Origin: a bacterium
GTDB taxonomy: Bacteria > UBA8248
Direction: 5' to 3'
Assembly: GCA_965213625.1 (NCBI GenBank)
Contig: CBDBZU010000004.1
Location: 58,126-122,125, forward strand
Length of the DNA stretch: 64,000 bases
Part shown: piece after piece, positions 3 to 15,399 of the stretch
Layout: every line of letters starts with the position of its first letter
Numbering within the stretch: the stretch's first letter is position 1
Notes under the pieces: generated by a model
What the model saw: the letters and a program-made list of their open reading frames with translations, nothing else
Told to the model about the DNA's origin: nothing
Databases searched by the model: none
Program-made: the position numbers and the translations under genes

Positions 3-3000
3 GATGTTGATACGCTTTTCGGCAGCAAGTCGGGCGTCGGTTTCGTGGTGCTGCCCGACGACGACTCCGACCCGATCCTGCTTCCTTATCCAGACGGTTC
101 ACGGGGTCTGGTATGCGACCACGCGCTGCTCGTTTCAAGCCTCCGCGAGGTCATAGAGAACGAGGCCAATGTCGATTTCATTTCCGACGCGCGGGTCAAT
201 GTCGTTGAAAACGAACGGATCACCTTCTCGAAAAACGGCTCGGAATGCGCCATAAATGTCGACCGAATTATCGGCGCCGACGGCCGCGCTTCGATCGTGC
301 GCAGATCCTTGGGATATTCCATGAACCCGATGCTCTGTTCGCGGATGCTCGGGGTGACGTTACACGACGCCGACCTGCTGTTTGAAGGTTACGGACATCT
401 GGTGCTGGGCGGGCCGGGTCCAATTTTCATTTACGGACTTGCGAACGGCTCCGTCCGGGTCAACCTAGATGTCCCATTGGACTGCTGGAATTCCAAGGAT
501 CGGATAAGTTTCTTGTCTGAATCCTATGGCAGGCTGCTTCCGGGATATCTCGGGCAGGCCTTCGTCGAAGCGCTGCACGTCAGGCGATTCTATGCCGCCG
601 CCAACCAGTTGAGACCGCGTGTCACGTACGGGAACCCGCGGCGGGTGCTTATCGGCGATGCGGCCGGACACTATCATCCCATGACGGCAGTCGGCATGAC
701 TCTCGGCTTCGGCGATGCGCTGGCGCTCTCCGAAAGCGAGGACTTCCAGCAATTCACCGCAGAGCGGTTCCAGGCGACCCGTGTTCCCGAGTTCCTTGCC
801 ATGGGGCTTTATGAGGTGTTGGCCGATTACCGCACCGAATCGGTTATGCTCAGAAAGGCCGTTTACCAGGGCTGGCGAGCGAATTCGGGGTATCGGGACC
901 GGACCATGCGGATACTTGCCTGCCAAGAGTTGTCCATGTCAATGACGGTTTTCTCCTTTTGCGAAACTATCGCGCGGGCAATGAGCCGGGAGATAATCTT
1001 CTCCATCCGCAGGTTTTCATGGCGTCGGATATTGGTGAACTTTCGCGCGTTGGCTGCTCGCCTTTGGTGGTTGCTGCTCGGCATCCGCCAGTTGAGGGAG
1101 GCGACCAGGGAAGGAAGGGAGGAAAGCGCGAAAGCGCGAGAGCACCTACGACGGGCATTCCCCTATACCATCCCTTCGAAAACCGAATCGGAGCGGTCCG
1201 CCCGCGCCGGAGAGGTCGATTCGCCCGATGCCGGTCCGGCGCTGGGCAGCGCCGCCCAATGCCTCGTGCAAATGCAGAGAGAGGACGGCCACTGGGAAGG
1301 CGAGATGGTCTGGTGTCCCATGCTCACGGCGCAATACGTACTGCTCCACCACATCATCGGCCAGCCGCTCGATCCGGGAAAGCGGCGCCGGGTGCTGCGC
1401 TCGTTTGAGAGGACCCGTCTCCAGGACGGTTCATGGGGCCTGCACGAGCATTCGTCGCCCCATCTGTTCGTCACCGCCCTCGTTTATGTCGCGGCGCGGC
1501 TGCTCGGTGAAGAGCCGGATGACCCCCTGATCGCGCCGGCCCGGCGGTTCATTCAGGCCGAGGGGATTCTCGGCATTCCGAGCTGGGGAAAATTCTGGCT
1601 GGCGCTCCTTAGTCTTTATGATTGGAACGGTGTGAACGCTGTTCTGCCGGAATTGTGGAGCCTACCGCGGAAGATACCGCTGCATCCCTCCAATTGGTAC
1701 TGCCATACACGGCTCATCTATATGGCGATGGCGTCAATTTATGTCCGCCGGTTCCAGGCGCCCGTCACACCAGTTATCGCCGCGTTGCGGGAAGAACTTT
1801 ATCCGCAAGGTTTTGCCATGGCCGATTTTCTCGCCACCAGGAACCGGCTTCGGGACGCCGATCTTTTTGCAAGGCCGTCCGTCTGGCTCAGGCTCGGATA
1901 TAGATTTGCACGGCTGGTCGAGCGGTTCCACAGCAAACACCTGCGCACACAGTGCATGGATGCAATTCTCGGGCAGATCAGATGGGAACTGCAGACCACC
2001 AGCCATACTAGCATCTCTCCGGTCAGCGGCATTCTCAACATTCTGGCGCTGTGGCTGCACGATCCGGACGATACCGATTGCCGACGGGCGCTATCGAAAA
2101 TGGATTCCTGGATATGGGAAGACGAAGACGACGGCTTGCGGGTCACCGGAGCAAGAAGCGCTTCGTGGGATACCGGGTTCGCGCTGCAAGCTCTGGCTAC
2201 CATGCCTGAGACGGACCGTGTTCGGGATGCGCTCCGGCGCGGCGCCGATTTTCTGCTCGGCGAACAGATCAAGACCAGCTTTGAGCGGTTTCGTGAAGCC
2301 TACCGCGCTGACCCCAAAGGCGGCTGGTGCTTCGCCGGCGGGTGGCATGGCTGGCCGGTGAGTGACTGCACGGCGGAGGCGGTGCTCGGACTCGTCGCCG
2401 CCCACGGAGACGACACGGACTCGTCCGTGCTCAGCGAAGCGATTGGCTTTATGTTGCGAAGCCAGAACCCCGACGGCGGCTTCGGCAGTTATGAGGCCAG
2501 GCGCTCGGCAATTGATCTGGAGCGCTTGAATCCCGCAGAGATGTTCGGCGAATCGATGACCGAGCATTCTTTTGTCGAATGTACCGCGTCTTGTATCGCG
2601 GCGCTGGCTGTCTGCCGGGATCGATTTCCCGAAATTGGCGACAGGTCAGGGGTTGCCGATTCCATCGCCCGGGGCGCCTTGTGGTTGCGACGGAACCAGA
2701 TGGCTGACGGCAGTTGGCGCGGCGTATGGGGGGTCCAGTACATCTACGGCACCCTTTTCGGCATCAGGGGCCTTGTTTCGGACCGGGCCGGTCCAAGCGA
2801 TCCGGCGCTGCGCGCGTCTTGCCGCTGGCTGCTGGAGCGCCAGCAGCAAGACGGGGGATGGGGTGAACACCACAGCGGCTGCCTAAGCGGTCGCTACGTC
2901 CCGCATCAGGAAAGTCAGGTCATACAGACCGCGTGGGCGCTGATAGCGCTCCTCGAGGCGGACGAAACTGACTGGGCCGCGATTTCCCGGGGCGCTGGCT

Positions 3001-3263
3001 TCCTGCTTAATACGCAGGAAGCAGACGGGACTTGGCCCAAGCAGGACATGCCCGGCGTTTTTTTTCGGACGGCGCTCCTGGATTACGGGCTCTACCGCCA
3101 GTATTTCCCCCTGCACGCGCTTGGTCTCTACGAGCAGCGTCGCCGGAAGCGACGCAAGAGCATGATATTACCGGCGAGAAGTCAACGCGTCATGGCTGAA
3201 AGAGTGGCGGCTGTGGAAATGAAGCCGGACGGCGGAACCGGAACGGCAAAGAATATCTCGTAG
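3..3263 (+). CDS. Fused squalene monooxygenase (epoxidase) / oxidosqualene cyclase; 5' end cut by the window edge
   Basis: The frame is open from nt 3 (ORF track 45..3263). The N-terminal part has the squalene-epoxidase-like signature IGDAAGHYHPMTAVGMTLGFGDA. A hydrophobic linker (LAARLWWLLLGI) follows. The C-terminal part has six QW repeats (QREDGHWEG, LQDGSWGL, QNPDGGFGS, QMADGSWRG, QQQDGGWGE, QEADGTWPK) and the catalytic WPVSDCTAEA motif typical of oxidosqualene cyclases, not the DxDDTA of squalene-hopene cyclases. Confidence 0.8.
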   Translation, partial: DVDTLFGSKSGVGFVVLPDDDSDPILLPYPDGSRGLVCDHALLVSSLREVIENEANVDFISDARVNVVENERITFSKNGSECAINVDRIIGADGRASIVRRSLGYSMNPMLCSRMLGVTLHDADLLFEGYGHLVLGGPGPIFIYGLANGSVRVNLDVPLDCWNSKDRISFLSESYGRLLPGYLGQAFVEALHVRRFYAAANQLRPRVTYGNPRRVLIGDAAGHYHPMTAVGMTLGFGDALALSESEDFQQFTAERFQATRVPEFLAMGLYEVLADYRTESVMLRKAVYQGWRANSGYRDRTMRILACQELSMSMTVFSFCETIARAMSREIIFSIRRFSWRRILVNFRALAARLWWLLLGIRQLREATREGREESAKAREHLRRAFPYTIPSKTESERSARAGEVDSPDAGPALGSAAQCLVQMQREDGHWEGEMVWCPMLTAQYVLLHHIIGQPLDPGKRRRVLRSFERTRLQDGSWGLHEHSSPHLFVTALVYVAARLLGEEPDDPLIAPARRFIQAEGILGIPSWGKFWLALLSLYDWNGVNAVLPELWSLPRKIPLHPSNWYCHTRLIYMAMASIYVRRFQAPVTPVIAALREELYPQGFAMADFLATRNRLRDADLFARPSVWLRLGYRFARLVERFHSKHLRTQCMDAILGQIRWELQTTSHTSISPVSGILNILALWLHDPDDTDCRRALSKMDSWIWEDEDDGLRVTGARSASWDTGFALQALATMPETDRVRDALRRGADFLLGEQIKTSFERFREAYRADPKGGWCFAGGWHGWPVSDCTAEAVLGLVAAHGDDTDSSVLSEAIGFMLRSQNPDGGFGSYEARRSAIDLERLNPAEMFGESMTEHSFVECTASCIAALAVCRDRFPEIGDRSGVADSIARGALWLRRNQMADGSWRGVWGVQYIYGTLFGIRGLVSDRAGPSDPALRASCRWLLERQQQDGGWGEHHSGCLSGRYVPHQESQVIQTAWALIALLEADETDWAAISRGAGFLLNTQEADGTWPKQDMPGVFFRTALLDYGLYRQYFPLHALGLYEQRRRKRRKSMILPARSQRVMAERVAAVEMKPDGGTGTAKNIS

Positions 3264-3331
3264 AGGGATGGAAAAAAGGGGACCGGAAGCCGCAGGAATC
3301 GGCATCACGAGAAAGAATCAAATCACGAGAA

Positions 3332-5362
3332 ATGGAGTGTAACATGATAACGAAGCAATCGTTGAATATCCCGCAAGAATTCATCCTGACGATTCTCAAC
3401 GAGCAGAACGGTTATTTCCACCAAGTGGAGGGCTGGACGTTGAACTGCGCCACCATCGGCGCAGTTCTGGCCGATCTCTGCTTGAAATCACGCGTTGATA
3501 CAGATGAAGAATCACTTTTTCTGCTGGACTCAACCAAAACAGGCGACCCGGAACTGGATTTATGCCTGGAAGAGATCGCATCCCATCCCAATCTGGAAGA
3601 ACCGCGATACTGGATTGAGCGGCTTGCAGTTCATTCGGAAGACATCATCGATGCTACGCTGAAGCACTTGATCAAGTCCGAAATTCTGACACGCCATGAT
3701 GGTGAGTTTTATACAACGAACCACTGCGCCTGGCATGCGAAATTGGAACGATATCCCCAAAGCGAGAGCGTCGGAAAGTACATCAAATCGAGAATCGAGG
3801 AGGTGATTTTCACGGATATCATTCCGGACCCGAGGGATTCCCTGATAATCGGTCTTTTGGATGCGTGCGATATCATTAAATTTATTTTCGAGCTGGATGA
3901 GGAAGAGAAAAAGCGAATTGACCTGGTTTGTAAAACGGAACTGCTCAACCGGGTCATTTCCAGTGCCGTCAAGCAAGTCGCCATTACGCCTGCATTGCAA
4001 CACTCACCCCTCACAAAATCAATTCCGAAGATTCCCCTAAAGAGCTTGCTTGCAAATCGGCATTTGTGGGACGGCAACCTGCCGGCGCTGTTCGGGAATC
4101 TGGCCGACCGATATGGTCCGGTCTTTCAAATCTGTGCGCCGTTTCAAAAGCCGCGAACATTTTTAGCTGGACCTGATATCAATCATTGGGTGCGTCGAAA
4201 TTCCCGAAGGTTTTTAACTTCCGGCAATTTTTTTCGCAAGATGGAGATGGTTTGCGGCGCAAACAATTTACTGCCGTCGATGGACGGAGCCGATCATTTT
4301 CGATTGCGCAAGCTGATGGGGAAAATTTACTCGAAAGCCAGTTTCTATGAGAGGCTGGATGATATGTTCCGACTGAGCCGCCAATTCATGATAAGTCAAG
4401 AGTGGCAGGCGGGATCGAGACTGGAAGTACAGCGAGATACCCGGTTGATGACCAATTTTCAATTGTCTCAGGTTCTTATTAGTACGGATTCGCAAGATGT
4501 ATTTGAAGATCTGGTCAAATGGAATGAAAGAGCAATCCTTTGCTACGTTGCGGATTTTCTGCCGAAATTCCTGACGCGCACTCCCGGCATGAAGTATCGC
4601 TTTCAGCTTTACGAGAAACTCCTGCGGCGCATCGAGCAGAACCATATACCCATTCACCGCGCAGGTGTTGTCGAGGAGCTAGCGGACGCACTGATTGCTT
4701 TGCACAACAGCGACCCGCAGTTTATCCCGGAGCAAAACCTGCTGTTCATGCTGGGGGTAACGCCTGTGTTTCAAAGTATTTATCTAGGGGACATGTTGGG
4801 ATTCGTGCTTTATGAAATGGCCAGGCAGCCGGAAATTACGGCGAGAATTCGTGAAGAGGCAAACGCGCTTTTCGATGGCGGGGACCCGGATAAAGACGAG
4901 TTTTCGCCGGACAAGTATGACGTTACCAGACGTTTTCTCATGGAATGCTTACGAATGTATCCGATTATCTGCATACATCTTCGCGATGTCTCAAGTTCTT
5001 GCGTCGTGGCAAATTATTCACTGCCGCTCAGGGAACGGTTGTACATTGTTCAAACCGCGGCGCACTACATGAGTGATTGCTTCGCAGACCCCTACGAATT
5101 CGATATCGACCGTTATCTGCCGCCGCGCAATGAGCATCAAGGTCCTGGATACGCTCCGAACGGCTTGGATACCCACTCGTGCGCAGGATGGGCATGGATG
5201 CATTTGCAGTTAACAGTTACCGTGTTGGTTATAGCGCATCATTTCGAGTTCGCGCTGCCGCCTAAAGACTATAAGCTGAAAATCAACCCGTTCCCGGCAT
5301 TGTCGGTTACGAAGAAACTTCGGCTGCGCATCGCAAGCCAGTTGCGCGAAATTTCGGCTTGA
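3332..5362 (+). CDS. GPP34(GOLPH3-like) domain fused to a divergent cytochrome P450
   Basis: The N-terminal ~215 aa resemble GPP34 family proteins (LNIPQEFILTILNEQNGYF...IGAVLADLCL). The C-terminal ~440 aa has P450 landmarks: YGPVFQI near its start, ExxR (ECLR), the PERF-like PYEFDIDRY, and the Cys-ligand loop PNGLDTHSCAG. It lies 69 nt downstream of the cyclase on the same strand. Confidence 0.7.
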   Translation: MECNMITKQSLNIPQEFILTILNEQNGYFHQVEGWTLNCATIGAVLADLCLKSRVDTDEESLFLLDSTKTGDPELDLCLEEIASHPNLEEPRYWIERLAVHSEDIIDATLKHLIKSEILTRHDGEFYTTNHCAWHAKLERYPQSESVGKYIKSRIEEVIFTDIIPDPRDSLIIGLLDACDIIKFIFELDEEEKKRIDLVCKTELLNRVISSAVKQVAITPALQHSPLTKSIPKIPLKSLLANRHLWDGNLPALFGNLADRYGPVFQICAPFQKPRTFLAGPDINHWVRRNSRRFLTSGNFFRKMEMVCGANNLLPSMDGADHFRLRKLMGKIYSKASFYERLDDMFRLSRQFMISQEWQAGSRLEVQRDTRLMTNFQLSQVLISTDSQDVFEDLVKWNERAILCYVADFLPKFLTRTPGMKYRFQLYEKLLRRIEQNHIPIHRAGVVEELADALIALHNSDPQFIPEQNLLFMLGVTPVFQSIYLGDMLGFVLYEMARQPEITARIREEANALFDGGDPDKDEFSPDKYDVTRRFLMECLRMYPIICIHLRDVSSSCVVANYSLPLRERLYIVQTAAHYMSDCFADPYEFDIDRYLPPRNEHQGPGYAPNGLDTHSCAGWAWMHLQLTVTVLVIAHHFEFALPPKDYKLKINPFPALSVTKKLRLRIASQLREISA

Positions 5363-5542
5363 AGGTGCTCCTGCAGGCCTGACCGGCAATACGGACGCTA
5401 TCGAGAATGAAGGCATGCCGCGAACGTGGACGCGGAGGGGCGGAAGTTTGCTCGCGAGACACCCGGCGGAACCGCCCCGGCCTGATCGGCGCTTAGACGG
5501 CCTCATTCCTTCGACCTACGCCATCACGAAACGTCCCAGAAG

Positions 5543-7882
5543 CTAGTCGCCGAGCGCTTGCCCGTGTTTCGTCCTGTCGAGCGTCAGCAGAAGCGGCGGT
5601 AGTAAAAAGAGGTCCGCAACGAGCGCAATGATGACCGTCATTCCGACCAGCAACCCGAGCGTCTGATTGGTCACTAGCCCCGATGCGCCAAAGACGAAAA
5701 ACGCCACCGCAAAAATCAAGGTTGTGCTTAGCAGCGGTTTTCCAACGAGTTCGAAAGTCGGCGCGATAGCTTCGGAAGGTGATTTGCCCTCTGCGCGTGA
5801 TTTCAGGTATTTGGACAGGAGATGGATGGTATCGTCCACAACGATGGCAAACGCTATCGCGGTAACGATTGACGCCGCAATATTCACGTTTCCCGCGGCG
5901 TAACCCCAAGCCCCCAGGGACATGATTGCCGGAACGAAATTGGGTATTAAGCTCAGAAGCCCCAAACGAAGGCTTTTGAATGCAAAAATCAACAGCAGTG
6001 AGACGATCGAGATCGCGATGAAGGTTCCGAGTAACATGTTCACGATGTTTCTCATCACCGAGTAAGCGCCGACAATGGCGACGCCGGTCGCTCCGGTTCG
6101 CATTTGCGGCGCATTTTTTCCCAGCCAGGCAGAAGCGCGATTGTCCAGCTCGATTTGCTCTTTGACCGACATTCCCCCGATCACGACGGTCATCCGGGTC
6201 GCCGAACGCTCAAAGTTGATGAGATTGTTTATGTCGCGGCCGACCGGTAGAGAGAACTCGTATAAAAGCAGGTATTGCGCCGCAAGGTCGGAGTTTGCCG
6301 GCAGTGCATAGGTGCCTTTTGCGTCATTGCGCAGATTCTGATTAATCCGCTTCATGATATCAGCAATCGAGGTGACGTGAGAAACTTCAGGCTGTTTGCG
6401 AAGCCAATTGGCGAACGAATCCACCCGATGCAGGTACTCAATGTCGGTGATTCCCCCTGCACGCCCGGAATTCAGTGAATACTCAAAGGAATCCAGCCCG
6501 GAAAAGTTCTCGTTTATGAAATCCCCCGATCGGCGCAACTCGTAGCTTTCGTTAAGCAGCTTGGCATTGTTGTTGTCATTCAGTTTAATTCTCGAGACGC
6601 CATATGCGCTCACCAGAACGAGTATGACGAAAGTCCAAAGCAACAAGGTGCTTTTGGAAACGACGAAATCTCCCAAACGCTTGAAAGTTTTCGTTCCGTT
6701 TCTCTTTTCGGCGGGCGCCCGCATGGGCATCATCGCCAACAATGCGGGCAAAAGCGTGACCGCGTAAGCGAATGCGCACATGGCGCCGAACGCAACGATA
6801 TTTCCCATCACTCGAAACGGGGGCATTTCCGAGAAATTCAGGCTCAGAAAACCGATCATGGTGGTGAGCGAAGTGAGGAATATCGGATGGGCATTGATTT
6901 GCAGGGAATGAACAACAGCGGCTTTACGTTCCATTCCACGAAGCATTCCATCGGTCATTCCTTCGATCAGATGGACGGAGTGTGCGATGGCAATCGCCAT
7001 CAGAACGAATACCGCGGCGCCGCTTTCCGCATAGAATTTCAATCCGAACCAGCCGGTTAAACCGAAACTCGATGCCATCACCGCAATTATCATCGCAATA
7101 ATTCCACAAACGCTCCAAACCGAACGCAGCAATAGAATGGCCACCAGAACCATCATCGCAAACGCGATGGGCGCCAAAAAGGACATATCTTCATTCAGCG
7201 CCTCGCGAACCGCCCGATTCAACAACAGTTCACCATAGATGTGATATTCGATATCGGGGTTGGACGCGCGCTGTTTGTTGACGAGACCGTAGAGACCGTC
7301 GACCACTTCGATTTTGCGCTGTTTCCTTTTCTCATCGGGAATAGCCAGGCTCACGATCAGCCCGGCTACACGACCGTCGCGAGAGACGAAACGGCCGGCC
7401 GTTTCCTGTGTGGTGAGCGCAATCTCTCGAACACGGGCGAGTTTGACCTCGTCCAGCGAAGCCGCATCGTCGACCAGCTGCTCGACAATCAGTGTGTCCT
7501 CGATTCCCTCGGTGTGTAGGTAATTGGTTATCGAATCGACACGGACAGAATAAGGCGTTTGCCACAACACCTCCGTCAGTTGCTCAATCGCAACGAGTGC
7601 TTTGCGCGTGAAAACGGTGTCGTTCGGCGGGGCGACAATGACGAGCACGCTGTCCGACACTGCGTAGGTCTTTTCGAAATCGTCGAGTTTGATCAAATGC
7701 GGATCATCTTCATCGAAGTGATTTCGGATGCCTACATTGACGGTAATCAGGTGCTGCACTCCCGCGGCGAGAACCGCGGTCACCAGGAATGTGACGGCTA
7801 TCGTCCAGAAGTATTGACCCACTACCAGATCGAAAAAACCGGACTTCGACTTGGATGTCATGTTATGTGCGCTTTCCCGCAT
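5543..7882 (-). CDS. RND/MMPL-superfamily transporter (HpnN-like, 12-TM type)
   Basis: 779-aa ORF with two blocks of multiple hydrophobic helices separated by soluble loops, the typical MMPL/HpnN layout. It is convergent with the P450 gene. Confidence 0.65.
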   Translation of the reverse strand: MRESAHNMTSKSKSGFFDLVVGQYFWTIAVTFLVTAVLAAGVQHLITVNVGIRNHFDEDDPHLIKLDDFEKTYAVSDSVLVIVAPPNDTVFTRKALVAIEQLTEVLWQTPYSVRVDSITNYLHTEGIEDTLIVEQLVDDAASLDEVKLARVREIALTTQETAGRFVSRDGRVAGLIVSLAIPDEKRKQRKIEVVDGLYGLVNKQRASNPDIEYHIYGELLLNRAVREALNEDMSFLAPIAFAMMVLVAILLLRSVWSVCGIIAMIIAVMASSFGLTGWFGLKFYAESGAAVFVLMAIAIAHSVHLIEGMTDGMLRGMERKAAVVHSLQINAHPIFLTSLTTMIGFLSLNFSEMPPFRVMGNIVAFGAMCAFAYAVTLLPALLAMMPMRAPAEKRNGTKTFKRLGDFVVSKSTLLLWTFVILVLVSAYGVSRIKLNDNNNAKLLNESYELRRSGDFINENFSGLDSFEYSLNSGRAGGITDIEYLHRVDSFANWLRKQPEVSHVTSIADIMKRINQNLRNDAKGTYALPANSDLAAQYLLLYEFSLPVGRDINNLINFERSATRMTVVIGGMSVKEQIELDNRASAWLGKNAPQMRTGATGVAIVGAYSVMRNIVNMLLGTFIAISIVSLLLIFAFKSLRLGLLSLIPNFVPAIMSLGAWGYAAGNVNIAASIVTAIAFAIVVDDTIHLLSKYLKSRAEGKSPSEAIAPTFELVGKPLLSTTLIFAVAFFVFGASGLVTNQTLGLLVGMTVIIALVADLFLLPPLLLTLDRTKHGQALGD

Positions 7883-8564
7883 GATTTGATTCCTTCTCGC
7901 GGTGCCGACTCCTGCAGCATCCGGTAATCTTTTTTCCCATACCTCTATAATATCTGCCTTCTATTGTATGGCTTCATGTCCATGGCCGCCACTTTTTTTA
8001 TGACAGGTTGGCTTCTCGCGGGAGCAGACCATCAGACAACTCCGTCGAGACGACGGATCAGCGGTTCTGTGACGGAGATCCAGTCGTCCCGCATCGGGCG
8101 CGCCGACGCGCTGCTCCTCACGAGCACCCATGCCCGCGATTTGCTTAAAGGCGGGGGCGCGACGCTCGTCGGGGAGACGGTCGAGACGTTCGATTGCGCG
8201 GGCGCGCGCTGCGTCGCTCGGAACGGGACGGCGGTCTCAGCCTCTCCTGGGCGCACAACGTAATACGCCCCGGCCATGAATGCGCTCGCCTTGACGGCCC
8301 AACAGGCACCATTGAGAAAGATCCGGTGTCGGTGTATATTTGTCGAATATTCGTTCAGCTTTGAGAAAAAGCGTCGTCTCATGAGAAAATGCGAACCAGC
8401 CGCTTTAGGCGCATATTCTCCTTGTGATTTGCTGCCTTGGGGAAAGCGGCGAGTCGCCCCTTCCGGCATCCTCTAGTGGAAACCTCCTGAAGAAAGAATG
8501 CAGCATCTCCCTCTTGCCGGGAGGGGCGGCGCTCGAACACATCATTTTCATTCGGGAGGGAAAG

Positions 8565-11234: not shown

Positions 11235-12032
11235 TTGAAAATGACCACCGGGACGAGGGGAGCTAGAAACGCCCAAAGGAAGTTCGGTGACCTCCCAGTA
11301 CCTTTGGGTCTGTCTCTGCTCGGCAACCTTCACCAGATTCGTTTTGCGAGGATGCACTGCATACTCGAGAGATGGGCGGATCGATACGGGCCGATCTATT
11401 GCATATCGCTGGGCAGGCGAAATTACGCGGTGGTCTCGGAACCGGACGCCATAGCCCATATACTGGGGAAGCGGCCCCACGGCTTCCGGCGCGAGAAGTC
11501 GAGCACCTGAGACGGTGCTGGGAACGCGCGGCCGATCATGGAGAGGCGATAGACCCCTACCGTGACCTCATGCGCTTCACCGCCCGTGTCACTATGCAAT
11601 TCGTCTTCAGCGTCGACCTCGGCGCGCCCGAAAGTCCCGGCGCATCCATCCGTCACCATCTCGCCGCCATATTCCCGGTGTTGCACCGCCGTCTGAATCT
11701 GCCCTTACCCTTTTGGAGGTGCTTCCGGCTGCCTTCGGATCGAGCGCTCGAACGCGCTCTTGCCGGACTGAAAGCCGAGGTTCGCGACATGATCCGCACT
11801 GCTAAGGAACGAATGGAAGAAAACCCGCGGCGCAGCGTTACGCCTGGGAATTTCATCGAAGCCTCAATCGCCGCCAGAGGATGTGCACGAGCGCCTCTCC
11901 TTCACCATGGCACCCGAGAAACTTATCGTACGCATAAGGCGCAGACAAGGCGCTTCATCCGGTTCGAATTCATCCCTAATCCCTCGCCGTGCCCAGGGCT
12001 ACCACGCGGACGGTCGCGATGCCCGGAGGTGA
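11235..12032 (+). pseudogene. Cytochrome P450 remnant (three fragments in three frames, core deleted)
   Basis: Fragment 1 is the P450 N-terminus (LPVPLGLSLLGNLHQI...WADRYGPIYCISLGRRNYAVVSEPDAI). Fragment 2, frame-shifted, is the middle part (GEAIDPYRDLMRFTARVTMQFVFSVDL...LKAEVRDMIRTAKERMEENP). Fragment 3 from 11877 is the C-terminal tail (EDVHERLSFTMAPEKLIVRIRRR). The I-helix, ExxR and heme loop are absent. Confidence 0.65.
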
Positions 12033-12172
12033 AGATTATCTTCACGCTTTTTCAACAGCCCCGTCAGTGCCTGCCAACAAACGCCGGCACATTCCATACT
12101 TATCCGATAGCACCGGGAAAAGAAGCGTTCGGGAGCTTCAGCTTCCCTCTTAGGAGAGCGTCGTTATCGTTT

Positions 12173-13110
12173 GTCGGGTAGGGCACTGGCGCGCGCACCT
12201 TTAGGCGGAGGGTTTCCAGCCCTGCCCTTTCGGTTCCAGGGTGGGGTCACAGTTCCGCCTTGAGCCACGTTTCCAGCCGCCCCCCCTAAAATTCCGTACG
12301 TCGAGTTTTCCTCGGTACGGCTTCCAGCAACAGGCACCTCCCAGTTTGGAGTGGAGTATTCCGCGGGAACACCGGGGTTTAAGACCGACCCTGCCATACC
12401 CCTCGGCGGGTCCAACGTTTACTCCGCCCTCAGGCTTCACCATGTGCAGAGCGCTTTCCCCCGCCTCTGTGTGCGGGCTGCCCGCCACGGTGTCGCCACC
12501 TGTGCCCAGAGGTCCTCGCTCCGGGTGGGTTGTGTTCTCCCACCCTTCATCGCTTGGCGACCTCGTCCGCCAGTCTGGAGGTCTCCGTCTCACTTCCCGG
12601 CGCCCCGGTTATAAAGACGGTCTTCGACATTCACAGGGTCATCCTGTCATGACCTCCACACCTTCCGGACTTTCACTGCGCTACTTTCGAGTATTGCCGC
12701 CTTCAATACGCCGGGAGCCCCGGTTCGTGCGCCTCAGTTTCTTCTGCACCGGCACTGGCCATCGGTTAGGAGGGAGACCCTTGGCAACTCCATCTACCCC
12801 GCAAATCAGCTTCACGCGGGAAGTCCTTGTTTCGACGCTTCATCCGTTCACTTTCGTTACGGTCCTACTCGTTGCTTGCCTGCCGGGCTGATCGCACACG
12901 AGCGGCACGGCGGCCCCTCTGTACCCCGAGGCTTTTACGTCCGGGCTTCCAGAGCGCCGGGTCGCCCCGTACGTCTGCTGGATATGACTACGGCGCCAAA
13001 CTGAGAATTGCGCCGGCGGGACTTTCACCCGCTAGTACCGCAGTTAGTCTCGCTGCACCCCTCCCGCAGGACTTTCACCAGCTGCACTGACACCAGTTAG
13101 CCTGGCGCAC
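12173..13110 (-). ncRNA. ORF-less group II intron-like RNA (element B)
   Basis: The minus strand starts GTGCGCCAGGCTAAC at 13110. A 34-nt domain V-like hairpin sits at 12323->12290 (AAGCCGUAC CGAG GAAAA CUCG AC GUACGG AAUU, with a 2-nt AC bulge). The element ends ...GCCCUACCCGAC at 12173, with a UA bulge 7 nt from the end. There is no credible ORF on either strand. Confidence 0.45.
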
Positions 13111-13123
13111 ACCCCATCGCTTG

Positions 13124-15399
13124 GTCGGGTAGGAGGGGGCATTGCTGCGCCCCTCCCCCCACAGACCCGAGCGTGCGCGATTGACACACTCGGTTCCTCA
13201 CCTGACAGGTTCGCTCAAGGGGTTGTCACCCTTGCTCCGCAGGTCGAGGCATTCCTCGCCTGTTTGGCTATCCACTGCTGTTTCGTGTACGTGTTGGTGG
13301 AACTCAGAGTTTCCTCCAGCGTTTCCCATCAGTGGCTCTGTACAGATGACGCCCCGCTTCCCTCCAGTGGGTCCCGGTGGCCACGGTTCCCCGCCTTCAG
13401 CGGTACTATCAGGGCGCTACGACTTCCTGCCCTTCTCTAATCGGGACGAGCAAGTCAAGTTCCTCTGCCCTGTTTTTTCCAGCTCTGTTCCGCCTTTGGT
13501 TTTAGACGATACTCCATGGGGGTCTCGCTTCTCTACGTGATCGGCACCCGGTCCGGGGCCGTCAACAGGATGGGATCGGAGAACGAGGTGGAACAATCTC
13601 GCATACGTCCTCGCACCGTCACCGACGGAGCGGAACGGGGCAGGAAGCGAACTCACCTCGTCCCTCGTCCCCACGGGAGCATCCTCCGCCAGATCGGAAG
13701 CTGCCGTAGTATTCGGATTCTTCTCCTCTTGGATTCCCAAGGTCAGGCGGCTACGTCATCCACGCCGTCGCGTTTCCAGCGGAACTCGCTGCCATCCATC
13801 CATATGCGGTGCATGATGACGCCGAGCCGGCGGGCAAGCGCAACCTTCGCGCGCGCCTTGCCGCGACGCTTCGCCACACCCATCGCCCAGGCTTTCAGCC
13901 ATGACCACCGCGTCGTGCGCCCGAGCAAGGCGTTGGCGGCTTCGTAGAGCGCCGCGCGCATCATCGCGTCGCCGCACTTGGAGATTCTTCCCGTTCGGTC
14001 GACCTCTCCGGATTGCCATTTGCGAGGCGCAAGCCCGAAGTGCGCGCCCACCGAGCGCGAACGAGCAAAACGCGATGGCACGTCGACGCTCGCCCGGAAG
14101 GTGAGCGCCGTCACCGGACCCACGCCGGGGACCGTCATCAGGCGACGGCAGACCGGGTCGACGCGCACCGCCTCCAGCATCATCCTGTGCAGCCGGACGT
14201 ATTCCGCCAGCAACGCCGCTCGCGCCCGCAGCATCGGCTTCACCAGGCCCGCCAGCGCCGGGCGCTCCGCGACCAGTCCAAGCACCCGCGCCTCCAGCCC
14301 GCGGCGGGTGACCTTGCCCATCTTCAGCCCGAAGTTGCGCAGCGTGCCCCGGATGTTGGCCTCGGCGTCGCACAACTGCTTCAGCATGAACCTGCGGTTG
14401 GCGAGGAGCATTCGTTTCTCCTGGCTCGACACCGTCTTCACGTGCACCGGGCGAATCAGGTTCGCGCGAACCAGCTGGGCGATCCCGCGCGCGTCGTCAC
14501 GGTCGCTCTTGTTCACCGTCGCAGATAGTATGGCCTTCAACTGCCGCGTCTCGGCGCAAACCACCGGGAGCCCGGCCTCGGCCAGGCCGTCATGGAGCCA
14601 CTGCGACAGCGGCCCCGCCTCAAGACAGATGCGCGTCACGCCGAAGTCCAGCCCGGTGAAGAACGCCGCGAGGGCCGCGGGTTCGCTCGCGACCTTCGCC
14701 TCCCGGACGATCCCGCCGTCCACGTCCACCACGCACACGCTCGTCCACTCCAACGACACGTCGAGTCCTGCAAAGTAGTTCATGACTGCTCCTCCTGCGG
14801 GCGCGTAGAGACCGGACCATCCCGGCCTCGCCTCGATCATATGACAGAGGAACATCCCCTACACGCGGTAGTTCGAGGGCCGACCCGATTATCCCATCTC
14901 GCATCTCCTTCGGCTTATTGTTTTCACCAGCCGGTTCCGCGGGCGCCTGCCGGGTTCGTGTCCGCCATGGGGCGCTCCCGCCGCCGTGCAAGCCCGGCGA
15001 CGGACCGGGGTCTGGATTTTCATGCTGGCCGTCCCCTTTCCAGCGTTCTTGCCCACGGGCAAGAGCAGGATCTCCCAGGTTCCCTGGCGACCCATCCCCG
15101 TAACTTTGCGCCGGTCCACGACCCCGGACGACCCGTTGCGCCTCGCCGATAGCGGCGCTTCCGGTGCTGCCCCCACACGATTAACAATGAAGGCGTCGTC
15201 GATTCACCGATTTCGAGGCTTACCCCACCGCTTCGTCACCTGCTGTCTACGCTTCACGACGCACGTTGCCGCACGCCATGCAAGACTCGCTTCCGGCTGG
15301 CTGGCTTCGCCTTTGCCGGGCGGGAGTCGAACCCGCTGGGTCGCTACGAGAGGTTTCAGGTCATGGCGTCCTCCTCTCCAGGGCTTAGCCTGGCGCAAT
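13124..15399 (-). mobile_element. Group II intron-like RNA (element A) containing an IS110-family recombinase gene
   Basis: Minus strand: a domain V-like 34-nt hairpin at 13196->13163 (GAACCGAGU GUGU CAAUC GCGC AC GCUCGG GUCU). It is followed directly by a domain VI-like hairpin with a bulged UA, ending ...CCUCCUACCCGAC at 13124. The candidate 5' end is TTGCGCCAGGCTAAG at 15399. The IS110 ORF occupies the position where an intron-encoded protein would sit. Confidence 0.35.
13743..14783 (-). CDS. IS110-family (DEDD/RuvC-like) transposase/recombinase
   Basis: MNYFAGLDVSLEW...CLEAGPLS...NKSDRDDARGIA (DEDD N-terminal domain) and PGVGPVTALTF...GLAPRKWQSGEVDRTGRISKCGD (Transposase_20-type C-terminal domain). 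Start chosen at ATG 14783, behind the SD AGGAGGAG; the ORF track extends to 14855. Confidence 0.9.
   Translation of the reverse strand: MNYFAGLDVSLEWTSVCVVDVDGGIVREAKVASEPAALAAFFTGLDFGVTRICLEAGPLSQWLHDGLAEAGLPVVCAETRQLKAILSATVNKSDRDDARGIAQLVRANLIRPVHVKTVSSQEKRMLLANRRFMLKQLCDAEANIRGTLRNFGLKMGKVTRRGLEARVLGLVAERPALAGLVKPMLRARAALLAEYVRLHRMMLEAVRVDPVCRRLMTVPGVGPVTALTFRASVDVPSRFARSRSVGAHFGLAPRKWQSGEVDRTGRISKCGDAMMRAALYEAANALLGRTTRWSWLKAWAMGVAKRRGKARAKVALARRLGVIMHRIWMDGSEFRWKRDGVDDVAA

Follow-up and report, generated by a model that had tools for sequence, protein, structure and literature searches.

A GPP34–cytochrome P450 fusion protein encoded in sterol gene clusters of sponge-associated bacteria: a probable sterol-tailoring enzyme

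Introduction

The subject of this work is a gene in a 64,000-nucleotide stretch of bacterial DNA (GTDB lineage UBA8248; GenBank assembly GCA_965213625.1, contig CBDBZU010000004.1), referred to below at its full length as the window. The gene lies directly downstream of a squalene epoxidase–oxidosqualene cyclase (SE-OSC) fusion gene and encodes a single protein in which an N-terminal GPP34 (GOLPH3-like) domain is joined to a C-terminal cytochrome P450 domain. This protein is probably a cytoplasmic, peripherally membrane-associated, sterol-tailoring P450. It would form part of a horizontally mobile sterol module, covering synthesis, modification, and export, of a kind typical of sponge-associated bacteria. 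A sterol-modifying enzyme is more likely than a host-manipulating effector, because the gene is located among sterol-synthesis and lipid-export genes both here and in most of its relatives.

The domain architecture itself has been described before. A study of sponge symbionts (Microbiome 2025, PMC11706023) reported 656 "GPP34_L" proteins, composed of GPP34 and P450 domains and all from sponge symbionts, which span many phyla. In that study, GPP34 proteins were proposed to be secreted effectors that bind phosphatidylinositol 4-phosphate (PI4P) and block phagosome maturation, and both the GPP34_S and GPP34_L types were found to be transcribed in Aplysina aerophoba. The architecture of GPP34_L (N-terminal GPP34, C-terminal P450, approximately 670 amino acids (aa)) is identical to that of the window protein, and the phyla are the same as those encountered here, including Proteobacteria, Chloroflexota, Nitrospirota, Acidobacteriota, Gemmatimonadota, Latescibacterota, and others. 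Taken alone, the window gene is unremarkable within this large family, and the combination of domains, regarded as unusual in an initial annotation of the window made from its sequence, is not novel. Sterols, methyltransferases, and MMPL transporters are nowhere mentioned in that paper. The two functional readings differ: phagosome evasion in the earlier work, and sterol clusters with resistance-nodulation-division (RND) transporters, together with loss of the PI4P-binding arginines, in the present one.

Sterol gene clusters of sponge symbionts have been described separately. Horizontally transferred ERG24-CYP51-LSS clusters were reported in Ircinia symbionts, as well as in Dehalococcoidia and other phyla (Kelly et al. 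2022, PMC9531527), and the sterol methyltransferases (SMTs) of such clusters were shown to build the 24-isopropyl side chain (Brown et al. 2023, PMC10070321). In the Supplementary Data of the latter paper, the ERG1 and ERG7 matches share one gene identifier, which corresponds to an SE-OSC fusion. The loci analyzed here resemble these clusters in the arrangement sdmB-sdmA-ERG24-CYP51-(SE-)OSC, in the presence of SMT copies, and in horizontal spread over many phyla. They differ in that the main texts of both papers describe neither a GPP34-P450 gene nor an MMPL partner, the two features that recur most constantly in the neighborhood here. A term search of six supplementary files of Brown et al. 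(PMC10070321) did not find "P450" or "GPP34". In the literature library searched, nothing was found that joins GPP34, P450, and sterol or that links the GPP34_L family to the sterol clusters, and GPP34 together with sponges returned only PMC11706023. As far as could be found, the linkage to sterol clusters, the coexistence with CYP51, the loss of the PI4P-binding arginines, and the subfamily-wide Tyr-Leu I-helix are unreported.

Two observations on the sponge microbiome that have been treated separately, the GPP34-P450 fusion and the sterol clusters, thus concern physically the same loci. These clusters include the methyltransferases responsible for the 24-isopropyl side chain, which is used as a "sponge" biomarker. 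If the sterol-tailoring role is correct, the effector model for GPP34_L needs revising, a bacterial role of the GOLPH3 fold that does not involve PI4P is defined, and an uncharacterized bacterial sterol step becomes accessible to testing with three genes (SE-OSC, GPP34-P450, and MMPL). The new linkage and the motif findings together make the function of the family directly testable.

The fusion gene and its product

The gene consists of one unbroken reading frame of 676 codons without an internal stop or frameshift. The possibility that a frameshift conceals two separate genes, raised in the initial annotation, does not apply, and the two domains form one polypeptide. Translation probably begins at ATG 3344, since a GGAG Shine-Dalgarno sequence is located 7 nucleotides (nt) upstream of this codon and the closest homologues, P0001 and P0002 (672 aa each), have the N-terminus MITK. 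The first four listed codons, MECN (3332..3343), are probably not translated.

Both domains proposed initially are matched by Pfam well above the curated cut-offs. The GPP34 model (PF05719) covers aa 13-199 with an E value of 6.6e-23 (82.3 bits, cut-off 29.1), and the p450 model (PF00067) covers aa 489-661 with an E value of 7.1e-22 (78.2 bits, cut-off 22.8). NCBIfam P450 models extend over aa 281-669. A protein search with the fusion gave 730 significant matches. Among the best 120 of these, 118 contain both Pfam domains and the other two are truncated; most are full-length proteins of approximately 670 aa, with 48-92% identity to the window protein. With one genome scanned per species, the fusion was found in more than 541 genomes. 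The ratio of nonsynonymous to synonymous substitution rates (dN/dS), determined for each domain separately against four relatives, is 0.13-0.28, which indicates purifying selection on both domains. Given these homologues, their number, and the dN/dS values, the fusion is genuine and not an assembly artefact.

In a full-length AlphaFold2 (AF2) model built from a 118-sequence alignment, the protein forms two domains (mean predicted local distance difference test score (pLDDT) 88.4, predicted template modeling score 0.81). They are connected by a proline-rich linker (Table 1), whose position would correspond to that of the hinge following the membrane anchor in microsomal P450s. Neither a signal peptide nor a transmembrane helix was found in the fusion protein.

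Gene neighborhood across related loci

The neighborhood of the fusion gene was compared across 83 loci, comprising 80 species-level genomes, two contigs identified by exact protein look-up (L001 and L002), and the window. Neighboring genes within 10 kb were classified using hidden Markov models built for each family, following checks against Pfam and NCBIfam. The most conserved neighbor of the fusion gene is an MMPL transporter of the type carrying a sterol-sensing domain, present at 57 loci, and an RND pump of either the MMPL or the AcrB type occurs at 68. A KshA-like Rieske oxygenase and an SMT are each found at 41 loci, and an amine-oxidase-like flavoprotein at 30. The SE-OSC fusion is encoded at 18 loci, the window included, while ERG24 (12 loci), SdmA-type Rieske proteins (11), canonical CYP51 (10), and SdmB-like proteins (9) are less frequent. 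When the SE-OSC fusion, SMT, ERG24, and canonical CYP51 are taken as strictly sterol-specific, at least one such gene is present at 56 of the 83 loci, and 77 have a sterol-type enzyme, an RND pump, or both. This conserved neighborhood strongly backs the sterol-related role that was first suggested by the proximity of the cyclase gene, the gap to which measures 68 nt (cyclase stop at 3263) instead of the 69 nt given initially.

The loci come from at least eight phyla (Alpha- and Gammaproteobacteria, Chloroflexota, Latescibacterota, Nitrospirota, Gemmatimonadota, Acidobacteriota, Verrucomicrobiota, and Rhodothermaceae). All fusion-bearing genomes found are metagenome-assembled genomes (MAGs), many with sponge-derived names. 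The nearest relatives belong to MAGs of Alphaproteobacteria/Rhodospirillales, and the family includes Candidatus Poriferihabitaceae and genomes with sponge-bin names. Within the window, the order is SE-OSC, the 68-nt gap, GPP34-P450, and a convergent MMPL gene. The GC content is 49.2% in GPP34-P450 (57% at third codon positions, GC3) and 52.8% in MMPL, compared with 60.6% in both SE-OSC and the window as a whole; GC3 of the other genes is 81-87%. Because the GC content of the GPP34-P450 and MMPL pair is far below the window average, horizontal acquisition of this pair is suggested.

Two variations on this arrangement were observed. Loci L017 (1943-3961 and 10001-12019) and L061 (3104-5266 and 9995-12040) each contain two full-length GPP34-P450 copies within 20 kb, and each copy adjoins its own MMPL gene. 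At Chloroflexota-type loci (for example L051, L052, L068, and L080), a recurrent module without an OSC nearby comprises an amine-oxidase-like flavoprotein, one or more KshA-like Rieske proteins, GPP34-P450, SMT, MMPL, LppX/LprAFG-like lipoproteins, and a transporter of the major facilitator superfamily (MFS). This module may serve the remodeling of imported sterols.

The P450 domain and its relation to CYP51

A Foldseek search with the P450 part of the model retrieved many P450 heme domains, including CYP102, bacterial CYP51, CYP46A1, and CYP184A1, with a template modeling (TM) score of approximately 0.8 relative to the target and an E value of approximately 1e-14, consistent with a class-II-like P450 fold. 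Motif conservation was counted over 118 aligned family members. The heme-loop sequence given initially, PNGLDTHSCAG, was confirmed in the translation, and the ExxR motif is present as ECLR, as had been read; the motif described as PERF reads FDIDRY and is not a literal PERF. The C-helix pair H322/R326 is invariant, as are the cysteine ligand, the ExxR residues, and the arginine of the PERF-type motif. This combination of invariant Cys, ExxR, Arg, and His residues is what a functional heme-thiolate protein would be expected to show.

The heme loop of the window protein departs from the consensus FxxGx(R/H)xCxG at two positions. G611, the first glycine, is present and conserved, and the second is replaced by Asp. 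At the aromatic position, 96 members have Tyr and 18 have Phe, and the remaining 4 have Asn. N610 is restricted to the window protein and three relatives with at least 90% identity to it, so that a Phe-to-Asn replacement, presented initially as a defining feature, holds for these four proteins. Since the other 114 members have Tyr or Phe, the Asn is a recent, clade-specific change and not a family trait.

The I-helix departs from the canonical form throughout the subfamily. In the AF2 model it comprises 32 residues (aa 467-498), and the absence of the canonical motif noted in the initial annotation was borne out, the sequence SIYLGD standing in its place. An alignment that includes more distant relatives places Y484 at the conserved acid (Asp/Glu) and L485 at the conserved Thr. 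No variation was seen at Y484, G486, or D487, and 116 of the 118 members have S482. An exhaustive search of representatives for wider relatives yielded both GPP34-P450 fusions at 24-37% identity and stand-alone P450s of approximately 440-460 aa. Many of these distant relatives, fused and stand-alone alike, have kept both a canonical I-helix (AGLDTA type) and the PFG heme loop. Consequently, the window subfamily is a derived lineage of a once conventional monooxygenase.

Several active P450s lack the I-helix threonine, including P450eryF, CYP74, CYP8A, and CYP152. Among the enzymes without it, CYP74 allene oxide synthase, CYP8A1, CYP5A1, and CYP152 are not classical monooxygenases. The window protein resembles these four in the loss of the acid-alcohol pair and in the altered aromatic residue of the Cys loop. 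Unlike in CYP74, the Cys loop is of canonical length and has no CYP74-type insertion; the Arg-Pro signature of peroxygenases is missing, and no sequence relationship to CYP74, CYP8A1, CYP5A1, or CYP152 was detected. The Tyr-Leu I-helix suggests, speculatively, either atypical activation of oxygen or a desaturation, peroxide-dependent, or isomerase chemistry.

Among solved structures, the best match is Methylococcus CYP51 (6MCW/7JJ1), with an E value of 1e-13 for the single sequence and 1.1e-25 for the family profile. In the profile search it is followed, by a small margin, by CYP725A4 (taxadiene hydroxylase), CYP102-like proteins, CYP90B1, and CYP46A1. That the closest relatives of known structure are P450s of sterol and terpenoid metabolism, with a bacterial CYP51 first, was counted in favor of a sterol-tailoring role. 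The protein shares with Methylococcus capsulatus CYP51 (6MCW/7SNM) the association with sterol clusters and the eukaryote-like (class-II-like) fold. However, identity to CYP51 is 20-28% (20% to 6MCW by Foldseek, 28% over 198 aa to a symbiont CYP51), which places the two in different P450 families by the usual 40% rule. The CYP51 signature AGHHTS/AGQHTS aligns to QSIYLG, so that QSIYLGD stands in place of AG(H/Q)HTS, and stand-alone and fused relatives score 150-630 bits, compared with 54-93 bits for CYP51.

In addition, canonical CYP51 genes occur together with the fusion gene at 10 of the 83 loci, nearly all in the order ERG24-CYP51-SE-OSC and a few genes away from it. One example (L011:5025-6497) has an E value of 5e-107 to Methylococcus CYP51, the I-helix AGQHTS, and the loop FGGGKHRC; the canonical CYP51s of symbiont loci are 61-69% identical to one another. 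As a separate true CYP51 resides in the same loci, the fusion P450 was rejected as the 14-demethylase of the cluster, and the demethylation proposed initially, understood in the CYP51 sense, is not upheld.

The GPP34 domain and the PI4P pocket

The initial assignment of the first approximately 215 aa to GPP34 was confirmed by Pfam, by a family profile, and by structure comparison. In a search of the PDB, the family profile matched GOLPH3 (3KN1, E value 6.5e-7) and Vps74 (7e-6); the single sequence of the domain gave no significant match in the PDB, and the family profile was required. When the N-terminal 228 residues were modeled alone, the pLDDT was 89.9, and the strands of the hairpin were placed at aa 119-122 and 126-129. 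GOLPH3 and Vps74 were the sole Foldseek matches of this model at an E value below 0.001 (TM score 0.61-0.69, E value 1e-7 to 8e-5). The domain shares with GOLPH3/Vps74 (3KN1, 2ZIH) the helical core with its projecting beta3/beta4 hairpin, the PF05719 match, and the pocket tryptophan. It differs from them in its low identity (14-18%), in lacking the N-terminal disordered region, and in being bacterial and fused to an enzyme; bacteria have no Golgi and generally no PI4P.

The PI4P pocket of GOLPH3 is formed by W81, R90, R171, and R174 (PMC2806290). These residues were mapped by aligning the family profile to GOLPH3, and the composition at each position was determined over the 118 family members. 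W81 corresponds to W35, which is invariant except in one gapped sequence. R90 corresponds to position 42, occupied by Ile in 59 members, Val in 43, and Ala in 11. R171 is replaced by E103 in 102 of the 118 members, and R174 by I106 in 112. Taken at face value, three of the four pocket residues, those forming its basic part, have been lost, while the hairpin and the tryptophan have been retained. The lipid tether that the initial annotation suggested for this domain is plausible as a membrane tether. Binding of a phosphoinositide is unsupported, and PI4P is probably not used, given that the three arginines are replaced by Ile/Val, Glu, and Ile. In rare cases, GPP34 has also been reported as the fusion partner of a Rieske domain or of an ABC ATPase (PMC11706023); as these are membrane-proximal enzymes, they fit a function of GPP34 as a targeting module.

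Proposed function and alternative explanations

The proposed sequence of events has four steps. SE-OSC would produce a protosterol, which would be the substrate of the P450. The GPP34 domain, taking the place of the N-terminal anchor of eukaryote-type P450s, would hold the enzyme either to the inner membrane surface or to the transporter. The P450 would then modify the sterol in a reaction other than C-14 demethylation, and the MMPL/RND pump would carry the product outward. A more far-reaching version sees the fusion, together with its RND partner, as the conserved center of the horizontally spreading sterol module of sponge symbionts. GPP34 would then be a bacterial module that targets the enzyme to membrane or sterol and not a PI4P effector, and the P450 would perform a non-classical sterol transformation, such as a desaturation or rearrangement of the side chain or the nucleus, which supplies the neighboring SMTs or tags sterols that are to be exported to the host. 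This version is tentative and rather unlikely; if it is correct, the fusion would be the missing enzyme behind the unusual "sponge" sterols and their fossil biomarkers.

Several results weigh against a sterol-tailoring P450. At 6 of the 83 loci, no sterol or RND genes lie within reach. Two distant fused subfamilies with 31-33% identity (P0133 at L083, P0126 at L086) lie outside sterol contexts, and the sterol link is consequently limited to the subfamily of the window; in another distant fusion (P0122 at L085) the sterol context is partial, and one distant fused subfamily adjoins AcrB, OEP, and a KshA-like oxygenase. The vicinity of the fusion gene encodes no redox partner. The region of the GOLPH3 alignment containing R171 and R174 has only moderate posterior support. 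Finally, the heme loop carries the Asn and the Gly-to-Asp replacement, and the model confidence at aa 611-620 is only 60. The activity of the Asn-bearing clade could be altered for these reasons.

Some of these results, together with the subfamily-wide loss of the I-helix acid-alcohol pair and the tight pairing with a transporter, would also be expected of a P450 domain that is non-catalytic or only binds ligand, serving to sense sterols or to chaperone them to the RND transporter. Such a role has a small probability, because the Cys ligand, the other heme-binding motifs, and the C-helix His/Arg are invariant in all 118 sequences and, as noted above, the threonine is dispensable in several active P450s. 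A divergent CYP51 that stands in for the canonical 14-alpha-demethylase could account for the best match among solved structures and for the absence of a canonical CYP51 gene from the 64-kb window. It is very improbable in view of the co-resident CYP51 genes, found beside both ERG24 and SE-OSC at 10 fusion-bearing loci, the low identity, the Tyr-Leu in place of His-Thr/Ser, and the higher scores of the other relatives.

The published effector model, according to which the secreted protein attaches through GPP34 to host PI4P on phagosomes and keeps these from maturing, which spares the symbiont from digestion, with the P450 as an accessory (PMC11706023), is in keeping with the reported restriction of the family to sponge symbionts of many phyla, its expression in situ, the conserved fold and pocket tryptophan (W35), and the origin of the genomes found here. 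It is nevertheless improbable: the pocket arginines align to I/V42, E103, and I106, no signal peptide was found, and the gene lies inside sterol operons at most loci. In addition, an enzyme of the heme-thiolate type that is maintained by strong purifying selection requires both heme and a reductant, a poor fit to a secreted adaptor. A variant of the sterol-tailoring role assumes that the module acts on host-derived sterols, which are taken up and then remodeled or catabolized, instead of self-made ones. It draws on loci of Chloroflexota, Latescibacterota, and Gemmatimonadota, where the fusion is accompanied by SMT, KshA-like Rieske protein, flavoprotein, LppX-like protein, and MFS/RND transporters, with no OSC within 10 kb. 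This variant is unlikely as well, since the fusion gene is adjacent or close to SE-OSC in the window and at 17 other loci, and since an OSC may lie elsewhere in these genomes, given the clusters reported in Dehalococcoidia and other phyla (PMC9531527).

Features of the window

Table 1. Coordinates and properties of the fusion gene, its domains and motifs, and the flanking genes in the window.
Feature	Position (nt)	Strand	Residues	Remarks
SE-OSC fusion	45..3263	+		5' end beyond the window; homologue in L001 has 1146 aa
GPP34-P450 fusion gene	3332..5362	+		676-aa open reading frame; 672 aa from the probable true start, ATG 3344
GPP34/GOLPH3-like domain	3368..3985	+	13-218	hairpin aa 119-129; Pfam PF05719, profile and Foldseek
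Pro-rich linker TPALQHSPLTKSIPKIP	3986..4036	+	219-235	pLDDT falls to 64 at aa 221-230 (AF2)
Cytochrome P450 domain	4037..5359	+	236-676	Pfam PF00067, profile, Foldseek
I-helix center SIYLGD	4775..4792	+	482-487	non-canonical; replaces (A/G)Gx(D/E)T(T/S)
ExxR (E538-C-L-R541)	4943..4954	+	538-541	K helix; invariant in the family
PERF equivalent FDIDRY	5099..5116	+		R594 and Y595 invariant
Heme-thiolate loop PNGLDTHSCAG	5156..5188	+	609-619	C617, H615, and G619 invariant
MMPL/HAE3-type RND transporter	5543..7882	-		sterol-sensing-domain signature; convergent with the P450 gene; Pfam/NCBIfam

The SE-OSC protein is matched by the Pfam models SE, FAD_binding_3, SQHop_cyclase_N, and SQHop_cyclase_C, and by the NCBIfam oxidosqualene cyclase model TIGR03463 (727 bits); its E value to human lanosterol synthase (LSS, 1W6K) is 9e-135. 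The residues at positions T381, C449, and V453 of human LSS are Ala, His, and Val, respectively, a combination that suggests a lanosterol- or parkeol-type product. The transporter gene is matched by the Pfam models MMPL (1e-35) and Sterol-sensing (9.7e-8) and by the NCBIfam models HAE3 and, weakly, HpnN. A search of the 64-kb window found no CYP51, ERG24, SdmA/B, SMT, flavoprotein, LppX, LolA, or DUF1302 gene. A scan of positions 3000-8300 for promoters and terminators gave fewer matches than shuffled controls and is uninformative on operon structure.

Further downstream, the N-terminal piece of a second P450 is encoded at 11235..12181 on the plus strand (Pfam 9.7e-9, profile positions 2-69). 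It seems to run on out of frame in an overlapping reading frame (11372-12181) and has the appearance of a decayed P450 gene. Approximately 1.5 kb past it, an IS110-family transposase is encoded on the minus strand (13746..14855).

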